Assembly (NCBI GenBank): GCA_964016885.1
Contig: OZ024741.1
Location: forward strand, 166,408,001-166,472,000
DNA: 64,000 bases
Direction of reading: 5' to 3'
Source of the DNA: Eledone cirrhosa
Lineage: Eukaryota
Part shown: one piece after another, positions 9,004 through 34,080 of the stretch
Numbering within the stretch: position 1 is the first letter of the stretch
Layout of the letters: every line of letters starts with the position of its first letter
Position numbers and translations under genes: made by a program
Notes under the pieces: model-generated
What the model was told of the DNA's origin: nothing
Seen by the model: the letters and a program-made list of their open reading frames with translations, nothing else
Database searches by the model: none

Positions 9004-9832
9004 TTAAATTTAATGATAATAGTGATAGTATTTTCTTATCTTTTGTCACGAAAGTAGGATATCACCAAATGTTTCATACCCCCTCCCACACACACATACA
9101 CACACACTAATCGATACCGTTAGATCGTGGATGTAGACCGAGAAGTGACCATCACTGGTTTTCTCGTTTTTTTTCAAATAGCTTGATAAATGTTACCGAT
9201 AAATACAGTACATGTTTTCTGGACCCGACAGCAAAAACACACATAATTCACTTGGTCTCCCAAGGGATCTATTACATGTCTGTTTGCTGGTCTATGCCAA
9301 TCAATTTCCGTTCCAATTGCTCATGTTAGTACTTTTTGTCTCGCAACACGATCTTTGTCTTTGGCCGATGCTTGTTCTAGCAGCCAGTACATGGTATGGG
9401 TGTGTAATTTCACTTCTATATAAACAAATAGACAGACAGACTGACTGACTGACTGATTGACTGACAGATAGATAGATAAATAGATAGATAGATAGATAAT
9501 AGATAGATAGATAGATAGATAGATAATAGATAGATAGATAGATAGATAGATAGATAGATAGATAGATAAGTTTCTTTTATTTGCTACTAGGGCATCAAAA
9601 GTGGGACAAGTACAAAGGGGGGAGTTTACACAAAAAGGCGTCCTCAATAAGGAGGAGGCAATAACAAAATATAAAAATAAAATAAGATATAACAAAAAAT
9701 AAAATTTTTAACAAAATCCTCAATAGAGAGGAGGCGCCTTGGGGGGTCGCACACACCCCCGAAAAAAGTGTGCAACCCTTTTCCTCAGGAGCACAGAGAG
9801 GGGGTGCTCCCTCGTTCCTTCCTCTTTTCCAC

Positions 9833-12800
9833 CTACAGGCTTATGTAAAGAGAAGGCCCATTCACACGGGCCATTCTCGCCACTTTCACCCACCTTTCAT
9901 AAAAACGACTGGGGTGCAGCACCTCTCTCTCCATCCTGATCCTTCTTCCGAAATGATATCGGAAGAAACGGACCAGTTGTTGGCCAGAGAGAAAGGTGCC
10001 TGACCTCAGTCCTTTCAGACGCGTCCACCATACAACCTCTTTCGCCATGGCTATTACGCACAGAAACACCGCCTCTGCTTCATCTTTGAAGGGGGGAGGC
10101 GGCTTGATCATTACAATAGACTCGGTGGTCAACCGGATCGGTCCCACCCTTGACAGCAGTTGTTCGACATAGCCCCACAGATCGGCTACGCCCGAGCAGT
10201 GTACCAATGCGTGTGCAACGGTTTCCTCGTCGCACACGCATCTGGGACAGATCTTTTTGGCGGGGTCCCTACCCGGGCGCCCGTGTCTGTAGAGCCTTTC
10301 TCGAACGGGTAAAGCCCCTCGGTAGCACTGCCAGGCCAGGGACTTCTGGAAGTTGTCCATAGGTCCCGGGCTGAATGTCCTACCGAACAGGCTGGCCAGT
10401 TCGTCCTCCTCCATGTCTAGGGCTTCTCCGAGGGCGTCGTCGCACCTGCTGCGTACCAGCCCTCTATAGAATGTTGCGGTGGAGTCTCCACTGATAACCG
10501 GATCCGCCTGCCAGAGGGCGGTGAGCGCCTGGGCACACTCAGTGTGCCAGGCGCCCAGTTTTCTCGGTCTTTGCTTGACCCAGGATTGCAGCTCGGTGAG
10601 TGAGACGAGTCTGGGAAAGGTTCGTCTCACAAACGAGGCCCACACCGGTTGTCCGGTGAGGAATACGTAGAGGTGCCGTAGCCTTAATGCGTGTTTACGC
10701 ATCATTAGCCACGGCATCCCCAGCCCTCCTTTCGAAGGGTGTTGACAGCAGATGGATCTCCTCACCATAGGAGCCCGCCCCTTCCAAAGGAATTGGAAGA
10801 GCGCGCGCTCCATCTTGGTGAGGGTTTCCCTTGGGCAGGGCACTACGGTCAGGCGGTAGTAGATGACGGACGCTATATAAGTGTTCGCCACCTCCGCCCG
10901 ACCTTTCAGGGATAGTTTGCAACTGGCCCACTTCTGGGTCAGTGCAAACACCCTGTTCGTAACCTCCGCCCAGTTTTTCTCCACCTGGAGGTCCGGTCCG
11001 AACCAGACCCCGAGCAACTTCACCGGGCCCTCCGTCCAGCGTCCGACGACGCCATCGGAGGGCATCGGTCTGCCCCTCCACGTGCCGAGTTGCAAACCGA
11101 TCGACTTGTCCCGGTTCAGCTTAGCCCCTGTGAACTTTTCGTACTCCTCCAGTAAGGTGCCGACCGCCTCGATTTCGGAGGCCGTCGACACCATTACTGT
11201 CACATCATCGGCGTAGGCTGACACCGCTTTCCGCAATCCCGGTTCCAAAGGGATGCCCTGCAACAACTCCAACTTCCGCAGTAGTGGCTCGAGAGTCAAC
11301 ACATACAGAAGGGAGGAGAGAGGGCACCCTTGTCGGATGGACCGCGCGATTTTGAACGGCTCCGAGAGGTAGCCGTTCACCTTGACCCTAGAGCAGATGC
11401 GGCTGCTGTGCATAGCAGTGATCCAGCCCCTGAAAACGGGTCCGAAGCCTGCCGCCGCTAGCACCGCATCCAGGTAACCATGGTCGACCCTATCGAACGC
11501 CTTAGATTGATCCAAGTTGATCAGAGCCCCACCAAAGCCGGGTTCGTTCCCAACCCTCTCTATGATGTATCGCATGAGGTGGAGGTTGTCATGGATGGAC
11601 CTGGACGGGATAGCGCATGTCTGCGCATCTCCCACCAGGTTGCCCACGACAAGCGCCAACCTCTTTGCTAGCACCTTGGCCAAAATCTGTAACTCTGTAT
11701 TTAGCAGAGTTATGGGCCTGAAGTTACTTATTTCGTCCCCCTTGTTCTCGTCCTTCCTCACTAGCGTGACTACGCCCTTGGTCACAGTACAGGGAATTCT
11801 CCCGTTCTGTTGCCAGTTGCAGTAGACCGCCTCGAGGAGATCGGGGAACAAGTCCGGCATAGCTAGATATAATTCGTAAGGAAGACCATCGAGACCCGGG
11901 GATTTGCGTTTGCCGCATTGGCCCAGCACGTCCTCTATCTCAGCGGCCGAAATCGGCTCCTCGCAAGACTTCGCCTCCCTGTCCGAGAGGCGCGGCAGGC
12001 CGTCGAGGTATGGACCGAAGTCCACGTTTCCAACCGGCTCCCCGCCCCTCCCGAACAGTCGGGCAAAGTGCCTTTGAAAGGCCTCACACATCTGCTTAGG
12101 CTCAAGAATCGCCCGTCCATCCAGGTCTCGCAAAGACCGGATGGTGGATTTAGTTCCACTGTTGGCCTCTGTCACGCGGGCCCAGCTAACAGCTTTGGCC
12201 CCCTCGTTCCCTAGAGCACGTATTTTACTTCGGACAACGCAGCCTTCGTGCTTCGCGTCGAAAAACTGGCTCAAAGCCGTTCTCGACGCTAGCACTCTGG
12301 CCACGTCGCCGCTTCTAATTGCCTCTTCTACTCTATCTATTAGCTCCCTTTCCTTCCTATTCCTATCCGCAGCTAGAACCTTACTAAATTCAATCGAGAC
12401 TACTCTAATCTCTCTCTTTAGAGATACCCACCACCTGCTGTTGACGATCGCTCCAGTCAACCGTTCCTTAACTAACGTACCAATCCGATTCCTGTAGGCT
12501 CTACTTGCCGGCAAGGACAAGTTGAGCTTCCAGTAACCGGGGCCCTGTCTATGCGTTCTATCAAGGTTGACCATGCAGGTCACCAACTTGTGGTCTGAAT
12601 AGCCAACCATGAGCATTTCTGGACAACTTAAAAAGTCCCTGTCCTTATTTCTAACTAAAAATCTATCTAGGTACGATCTAGATGATCCGCTGCGATTTGA
12701 CCAAGACCAGGTTGGCACCGTCGGAAAATCTAGTCGAAATCTATCGGCCAGGTCAAATCGGCCGAGTAACCCCTTGAGGCTGTTGCACCCCTCTCTATCG

Positions 12801-32771: not shown

Positions 32772-34080
32772 GTTGAGGAAAAGGAGGAGGAGAGGAAAGG
32801 AGTACAAGCTCTTCGTACTCCTGGAGATGAGGGTTGCACATTTTTTTTCGGGGGTATGTGTTACCCATATAAACTGTCTCCCTCTATTGGGGAAAATCGA
32901 CTAACTTTTAAATTCCATCTGTGATAACATTTTACACGTTTTTATTGTATGTAAACTTCCCCCTTTGTATTTGTCCCCTTCTTTTGTGCCCCTGTGGCTA
33001 ATAAAGAAATATATCTATCTATCTATCTATCTATCTATCTATCTATCTATCTATCTATCGTTTCTTTCATTCTTGAAACCATGCTAGGGAGACGATTATA
33101 TGAGTTAAGCTAATTTATTTTAGTCTTTCTGACTTCCTCTAAATTGAGATTTTGGCAAAAGTTTAATATGTGATATATATATATATATATGTATATAGGA
33201 AAAGTGTCAGGACCACACCCTCTTTGTTATATATATATATATATATAGTGTATAGGTGTGTGTGTGCGTATTTGTGTGTGCGTGTGTACGTTATATTGTT
33301 GTTTGACCACCTCTTCCAGCCCGTCCAATTTCTATCTGTTATAAACGAGACCCGTTTGAGGATTTGAACTCACAAATACGAAATATATCAACTCTCATGA
33401 ATTAGATTTTGCTTTCACAAGAAGCTCAAAGAAAATTAATTTACTTCTTCTATCATATATAAGCATTCAAAAACAATTGAAAGTTACATAACATCATGAC
33501 TGGAAACTGTGCCTTGGTGTCGACTCATACAGAATTTATATTTAGCTCTAGATTACAATACACAGCTAAATTGTTATTTATTCTACTATTTATTGGCCTC
33601 GTGTAAAATTCTATTTTGAAAGGAAATTATATTATCACTGTTGGTGTTTGAATGCGTAGTTATTCTTTATTATATTTATTTTATCTTGGAGCGAAAGTAT
33701 TGCATTTAAAAAATGTTCTCTAACAAAAAATCCCATTACATTTTTTAAACACTCTGAAATATAATTTTAATTAATAAATTTTTAAATATATTAATTGCTT
33801 CATTAATGAGACGGGACTAAACTATAATTTACAACGTTTTTGTTAATGTATACGCACGAATGTCTACGAGCATGAAATATTTGTGTGTGTGCATGTGTCT
33901 GTGCGTATTTATATATATATATATATATATATATATATATATATATATATATATGAATGTATATATAGTGTATTTTGCAAGACACTGTATGCTTAATTAA
34001 AATCACTTTGAAGACCTTACGCCATTGTTTTAAAGTAGTGACTATGTCACTTACTTCTTTTTTCAACAAATAAAGGGAGA

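Follow-up and report, generated by a model that had tools for sequence, protein, structure and literature searches.

Why do two related retrotransposons in one stretch of DNA lie in the same microsatellite and in the same polarity? The stretch, here called the window, comprises 64,000 nucleotides (nt) from Eledone cirrhosa (assembly GCA_964016885.1, contig OZ024741.1, positions 166,408,001 to 166,472,000) and harbors two long interspersed nuclear elements (LINEs), copy A on the minus strand and copy B on the plus strand, which represent the sister subfamilies A and B. An earlier, sequence-only reading of the window attributed their placement to a strand-specific Tx1 lineage that targets GATA repeats. 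Support for targeting comes from the junctions of 5′-truncated copies, from duplicated target sites, from paralogous sites that are empty, and from the shared polarity; the specificity is not strict, however, and what is preferred is a short core. The likely account is that copies A and B are independent insertions of L1-clade LINEs and that their one-orientation placement in (TATC)n comes about through the endonuclease encoded by open reading frame 2 (ORF2), which would nick the GATA strand at C^TAT(C/A)T (as read in element sense).

The mapped tracts place (TATC)n on both sides of each copy in its sense strand, as had been proposed, and a poly(A) tail is lacking in both. Copy A indeed joins the repeat in the middle of ORF1, at 13770/13771, which corresponds to position 1562 of its full-length sister L113 (in which ORF1 starts at 218 and ORF2 at 2062); the element and the adjoining repeat share two nucleotides, AT, at the truncation point. 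The end motif AATAAA(A)GAAA is present as described, but the exact end was corrected: two further bases, CT in copy A and TA in copy B, come after GAAA before TATC begins. The two ORF2 proteins align without gaps and are identical at 959/1145 positions (84%; 80 to 85% had been estimated), and the copies lie in opposite orientations, so that they are no duplication of each other and represent independent insertions. The window contains 107 (TA)8+ and 26 (TG/CA)8+ tracts, which, as the sequence-only reading had noted, far outnumber the (TATC/GATA)4+ pieces; there are eight of the latter, and six of them are the flanks of copies A and B. Target-site duplications are unreadable for both window copies, as either flank is pure repeat.

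The 3′ ends of the family were counted throughout the 3.0-Gb genome with exact 3′ motifs, and the counts are lower bounds. For subfamily A, a degenerate pattern was adopted because the exact 3′ 24-mer of the window copy occurs only twice in the genome. At least 6,046 B-type and at least 3,558 A-type ends are present. The 3′ junction is fixed, with 5,568 of the 6,046 B ends running on as GAAANN-TAT. The terminal NN follows the subfamily (TA in 12/13 young B copies, CA in 20/25 older ones, p 2e-5) and is therefore part of the element, so that the flank begins at TAT. The AATAAA hexamer sits 6 to 7 nt ahead of the element end, and poly(A) was found at none of the 167 distinct 3′ ends sampled. TATC follows 147 of these ends and TCTC three; the 167 include 15 ends of further sisters, all with TATC after them. 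For the junctions, 60 B and 60 A copies were taken, each set out of the first 100 listed on one contig (C1), and every copy was followed to its own 5′ junction. The 3′ flank is TATC in 52/60 B and 40/60 A copies. Twenty evenly spaced 10-kb stretches of the genome served as the control, in which the background is 0.79% for TATC, likewise 0.79% for GATA, and 9.3% for TA.

At least three more sister subfamilies with distinct 5′ or 3′ ends were encountered (L024, L043, L120, L128, L289; L041, L046, L076, and others). All of them adjoin TATC in the same polarity, and they are often stacked with A and B. A few B-type ends (L022, L023, L027, L012) run into (TC)n, which may reflect insertion outside the usual target or a small branch that prefers TC. 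Contigs of two other organisms (X5, X6) hold one TATC junction each, which is too thin to count as evidence.

The flanking TATC could also be a tail that the element makes by slippage, with the 5′ tracts left by earlier tails or by tandem duplication and no true preference involved. Full-length copies fit this explanation, because TATC upstream of them (11/11 in B, 8/10 in A) could be carried by the element, which may bear a few TATC-like bases at its 5′ end. It is also favored by stacking, as 31 of the 120 copies lie directly behind the 3′ end of another copy. The decisive junctions are those of the 5′-truncated copies, which make up 99/120. After exclusion of six junctions inside other element sequence, 47 B junctions (35 TATC, 1 GATA, 1 TA, 10 other) and 46 A junctions (23 TATC, 4 TA, 19 other) remain, and GATA occurs at only 1/93. 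The 58/93 TATC junctions against a 0.79% background (binomial p 1e-63 for B, 3e-36 for A) exclude chance, which had been judged unlikely from the window alone. The predominantly non-TATC 5′ flanks that had been named as the outcome to refute targeting were thus not found in the truncated copies. The association persists when stacked copies are left out (21/32 truncated B, 15/37 truncated A), and TATC stands upstream of 18/21 young truncated B copies. One short repeat, unrelated to the LINEs and with TATC at its end, is LINE-filled at two loci (L096, L129) and empty at four (L027, L140, L286, L306); because the empty loci hold TATC as well, the tract exists independently of the LINE. Duplications at imperfect sites mostly lack added units, and the opposite orientations and 84% ORF2 identity of the window copies argue against duplication. 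A self-made tail is thereby largely refuted and has become improbable. Given the truncated junctions, the empty paralogous sites, and the duplications without added units, TATC is the target of these LINEs and not their product. One repeat type also exceeds 20% of the flanks on both sides, truncated copies included, which is the threshold for microsatellite targeting used in PMC4494074 (papers are cited by accession and for the covered parts of their texts).

The short repeat itself (L027, L096, L112, L129, L140, L184, L286, L306; e.g., L286:1140-1493) is absent from the window. It is about 160 to 350 bp long, with inverted repeats in its interior and a small hairpin at its end, and in every case a microsatellite of TATC, TC, or TA comes after it. 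It supplies landing sites for the LINEs. Our guess is that it is possibly a nonautonomous Helitron-like or foldback element.

The insertion point can be read at base level from the duplications. A duplication of at least 8 nt is present in 67/120 copies, of which 46 are pure repeat and uninformative and 21 are nonperiodic. A 40-nt “duplication” at L034 was rejected as the product of a stacked neighbor and left out of the length range; the remaining nonperiodic ones span 8 to 25 nt, any 5′ overlap included. Fifteen of the 21 begin straight after the terminal dinucleotide, and all of these start with TAT, are preceded by C at the upstream copy, and contain no extra repeat units. The C before TAT holds even at sites that lack a real repeat (e.g., L105, L137, L138). 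Read in element sense, these sites give C^TAT(C/A)T as the insertion core, best inside (TATC)n, and the nick on the GATA strand is probably 5′-AGATA^GA-3′. In five B copies at TATC-TA borders (L174, L190, L191, L197, L200), the 5′ flank is pure TATC, the 3′ flank is pure TA, and no duplication is visible, as either blunt insertion or later slippage would leave them.

The subfamilies differ in stringency. Behind the element end, TATCTATC and TATATATA occur at 4,518:126 in B and 2,229:229 in A, a 3.7-fold difference, and the control reverses this order with 7,526 TATATATA 8-mers versus 28 of TATCTATC. Specificity is therefore not absolute, although the short core is strongly preferred, and A also uses TA-rich sites. 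The CT-ending A subtype showed no significant enrichment at TA sites (20/100 versus 12/100 by eye, p 0.18). The preference shows even in B copies that precede (TA)n: 30 were examined, and among the 21 with a resolved 5′ junction, 10 have at least two TATC units upstream, compared to 4/463 control TA tracts (about 100-fold enrichment in odds). Such insertions lie where a TATC tract borders on TA. The sequence upstream of the insertion point thus matters, which points to recognition by protein, because an RNA tail cannot pair there.

Long tracts are highly occupied. A (TATC)8 tract starts after a non-C base at 8,766 places in the genome, and 21 of the first 30 such tracts (C1, 2-30 Mb) abut a family member (16 downstream, 12 upstream). 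The members that adjoin these 30 tracts are all in the sense orientation, with none antisense. The resulting 70% occupancy is indicative only, as the pattern favors tracts that start at element ends and one region was sampled. Such an association could in principle arise if insertion were near random and copies survived preferentially in TATC tracts, through selection or passive accumulation; the latter has been proposed for the Drosophila elements Waldo-A/B near CA repeats (PMC3812793). Against it stand the base-exact register and the single polarity, the association being strongest in the young B copies (18/21), and the scarcity of insertions in (TA)n tracts, although these are much more frequent. 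We regard differential survival as very improbable.

Several observations weigh against targeting by the endonuclease at this core. Among the truncated junctions, 11 of 47 in B and 23 of 46 in A show neither TATC nor GATA; some of these are duplication-bearing sites with a degenerate core, and the others may stem from later rearrangement or from off-target insertion. The C before TAT is not absolute, as A replaces it in L039 and L143 and T in L124. The nick cannot be fixed exactly from DNA alone, since RNA and target may overlap at TAT. Scaled to the sites available, the preference comes to roughly 10,000 for B and 2,600 for A, an estimate that depends on a TATCTATC background of only 28 hits. 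Finally, the 120 copies span the first ~100 Mb of a single contig, which bears on genome-wide scope.

Endonuclease targeting at C^TAT(C/A)T would proceed as follows. The ORF2 endonuclease, which would make most of the site choice, would nick the GATA strand, and reverse transcription would be primed at the nick. The second strand would be nicked about 8 to 25 nt away, and the frequent 5′ truncation would accompany such target-primed insertion. Cleavage of a transcript normally occurs 10 to 30 nt past the AATAAA hexamer. As the hexamer stands only 6 to 7 nt ahead of the element end, the transcripts would be cut within the flanking repeat, presumably a few bases inside it as judged from the DNA. 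The RNA might then anneal to the nicked strand through a few UAUC bases, by which the point where copying begins would be set; this would account for the precision of the junction and for the lack of poly(A). Later copies can stack head to tail, since TATC remains on either side of every insertion.

The same pairing could be given the leading role. In that case, nicking would be loose (e.g., at TA steps), only nicks that pair with the read-through UAUC would be extended, and the RNA tail would set the target. The absence of poly(A) at the 167 distinct ends, the position of AATAAA, and the very exact 3′ junction are compatible with RNA guidance, as are L091 and L102, in which 4 extra bases lie between the element end and the duplication. 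In addition, insertion of R2Ol is improved by annealing of read-through target sequence (PMC6795142). On the other hand, L105, L058, L137, and L138 have just 4 to 6 matching downstream bases and still carry C upstream, the upstream TATC of the (TA)n-followed B copies is unreadable for an RNA tail, and 15/21 informative copies lack added units. RNA guidance is thus an unlikely, though not negligible, alternative to choice by the endonuclease; the observations leave room for RNA pairing in an auxiliary role but speak against it as the principal determinant of the site. A broader scenario would combine both parts: an uncatalogued LINE radiation would have filled most long GATA tracts by a two-part device, in which the endonuclease reads upstream TATC and the terminal polyadenylation signal provides pairing through host-repeat RNA, while the 8- to 25-nt duplications supply new sites to the family itself. 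We put this forward tentatively, as it is less probable than not in its full form.

Copies A and B are L1-clade retrotransposons without long terminal repeats (non-LTR elements) of the apurinic/apyrimidinic endonuclease (APE) type in the broad sense. Both ORF2s contain the Pfam domains Exo_endo_phos, RVT_1, and zf-RVT, and an APE, reverse transcriptase (RT), and zinc-domain ORF2 is found together with two ORFs, 5′ truncation, duplications, and a closest similarity to L1 among named LINE proteins. An ORF2 profile (A, B, and seven relatives) compared with the PDB, in which few clades are represented, scored 381 bits for human L1 ORF2p and 83 to 123 bits for R2 proteins. The predicted endonuclease (EN) domain (predicted local distance difference test score, pLDDT, 77) matches L1 EN (Foldseek E 1.8e-15, template modeling score, TM, 0.78). 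The EN domains of the subfamilies are 77% identical, and all 10 full ORF2s found have retained the catalytic motifs of both EN and RT intact. Copy B ORF2 differs from that of its relative L061 at 15 positions, among them T691P, which lies two residues past the RT YADD motif and is absent from the other nine full ORF2s; copy B may be impaired by this substitution. Membership in Tx1 proper is likely. A CCHC knuckle in ORF1 is typical of Tx1 and is not known from mammalian L1, and a CX2CX4HX4C knuckle, which is not unique to Tx1, is present in ORF1 of A1, A2, and B. Protein homologs of ORF2 are nearly all without names, and no named Tx1 protein is among the matches. In a quick tree of 35 of the 85 hits, which included no named Tx1 protein, A and B fall within a group of 13 unnamed proteins at ~40% identity, and two named fish proteins and two plant proteins lie outside this group. 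Fourteen of 80 metagenome relatives, mostly 23 to 37% identical, were inspected; TATC flanks were not seen in these 14, two have (TA)n after ORF2, and one has poly(A). The metagenome contigs L204 and L221 carry distant relatives (L204 <30% over ORF2) with (TA)n soon after ORF2 and could represent TA-associated LINEs of other animals.

Table 1. Coordinates of the two LINE copies and their flanks in the window.
Feature	Position	Strand	Basis and details
3′ flank of copy A: (TATC)n in element sense, GATA on plus strand	9466..9568	-	Few interruptions; Tandem Repeats Finder (TRF) period 4, 26 copies
Copy A, 5′-truncated LINE, subfamily A1	9569..13770	-	99.4% to natural full-length L113; terminus AATAAAAGAAACT, without poly(A)
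Copy A AATAAA hexamer	9576-9581	-	Sequence
Copy A ORF2, 1145 amino acids (aa), open: APE endonuclease, RT (YADD), zf-RVT	9833..13270	-	Pfam
Copy A ORF1 3′ remnant and ORF1-ORF2 spacer	13271..13770	-	Break at position 1562 of L113
5′ flank of copy A: (TATC)n	13771..13911	-	Perfect 13774-13881; abuts truncation point
5′ flank of copy B: (TATC)21	27081..27164	+	Repeat reading
Copy B, full-length LINE, subfamily B, 5847 bp	27165..33011	+	99.0% to L061; terminus AATAAAGAAATA, without poly(A)
Copy B ORF1, 638 aa, one CX2CX4HX4C knuckle	27384..29300	+	Pfam zf-CCHC no better than E 0.23
Copy B ORF2, 1145 aa, open: APE endonuclease aa 15-232, RT 516-760, zf-RVT	29334..32771	+	Pfam
Copy B AATAAA hexamer, 6 nt short of element end	33000..33005	+	Sequence
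3′ flank of copy B: (TATC)12	33012..33059	+	Repeat reading

Elsewhere in the window, the minus-strand regions 46584-47174 and 56841-58316 hold a GIY-YIG-like ORF fragment (Pfam E 2e-4, slightly short of the curated cut-off) and two RT-like fragments without Pfam hits; by eye, these are decayed Penelope-like elements. Fragments at 51453-51914 (plus strand, without Pfam hit) and ~14000-14700 resemble, by eye, 3′ regions of RTE-type LINEs. A 208-bp unit is repeated three times in tandem at 52402-53030 (77% matches) with similar pieces at 8680-9030 upstream of copy A, and is probably a repeat resembling short interspersed nuclear elements (SINE-like).

The choice of microsatellites by APE-type LINEs has been described as poorly understood (PMC3812793). 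This question is directly testable here, given junctions in the thousands, young copies whose ORFs are open, a core at base level, and sisters of two stringencies. If the endonuclease reading is true, A and B, with their 3.7-fold difference between TATC and TA and ENs that are 77% identical, offer a ready natural comparison in which to locate the residues responsible for microsatellite recognition. GATA microsatellites are mostly not independent neutral markers in this genome, as 21 of the 30 sampled long tracts abut a copy. The proposed use as a site-specific integration tool is of modest value, in view of the short core, the abundance of GATA tracts across many genomes, and the T691P change in copy B.

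Among known systems, the comparison starts with Kibi and Koshi, for which Kojima and Fujiwara 2004 is reportedly the primary paper. Both are teleost Tx1-clade elements, with (TC)n and (TTC)n as their respective targets (PMC4494074, PMC3812793); TCC, given for Kibi by the sequence-only reading, is wrong according to the covered part of PMC4494074, which has (TC)n. By their description, they resemble the Eledone family as APE-type non-LTR elements with microsatellite-specific insertion in which target choice is attributed to the endonuclease. They differ in the repeat unit, which is (TATC)n/(GATA)n here. An identity with Kibi or Koshi by target was rejected, with TCTC after 3/167 and TATC after 147/167 ends. 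The targets listed in the covered parts of PMC3812793 (ACAY, AC, TC, TTC, TAA) and PMC4494074 (TTCC/TTTC) do not include TATC/GATA, and those of PMC3747384, PMC9004415, and PMC5786205 add nothing further on targets. A GATA- or TATC-targeting LINE was not found in the literature searched, with Repbase/Dfam and subscription papers outside this scope, and a catalogued entry is plausible; the remark of the sequence-only reading that no such lineage is described in cephalopods holds for this literature only. The recently active L1-Tx1 LINEs of Octopus vulgaris (13 families, 421 young insertions, PMC13282606) are alike in kind; the words “target” and “GATA” are absent from the main text of that paper, and its supplements and repeat library, where the families may be included, lie outside that check.

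The crocodilian Tx1-1_Crp group, which inserts into (TTCC)n/(TTTC)n (PMC4494074), shares the preference of a Tx1 lineage for a tetranucleotide and differs in unit and host. The endonucleases of Xenopus Tx1L and human L1 (PMC1950540; PDB 2v0r, 1vyb, 8sxt) are alike in the APE fold, the catalytic motifs, and the generation of target-site duplications. TTTT/AA is the nick site of human L1, which terminates in poly(A), whereas the family described here lacks poly(A) and sits on a simple repeat. Tx1L uses a unique site in Tx1D instead of a simple repeat; its EN nicks its own target almost exclusively, to which a hairpin loop contributes without being modular (PMC1950540). The Eledone LINEs thus extend a known microsatellite-seeking habit, familiar from fish, crocodilians, and insects, to the TATC/GATA unit, and add genome-wide counts, a short core, a difference in stringency between A and B, a dependence on upstream sequence, and a high occupancy of long tracts.

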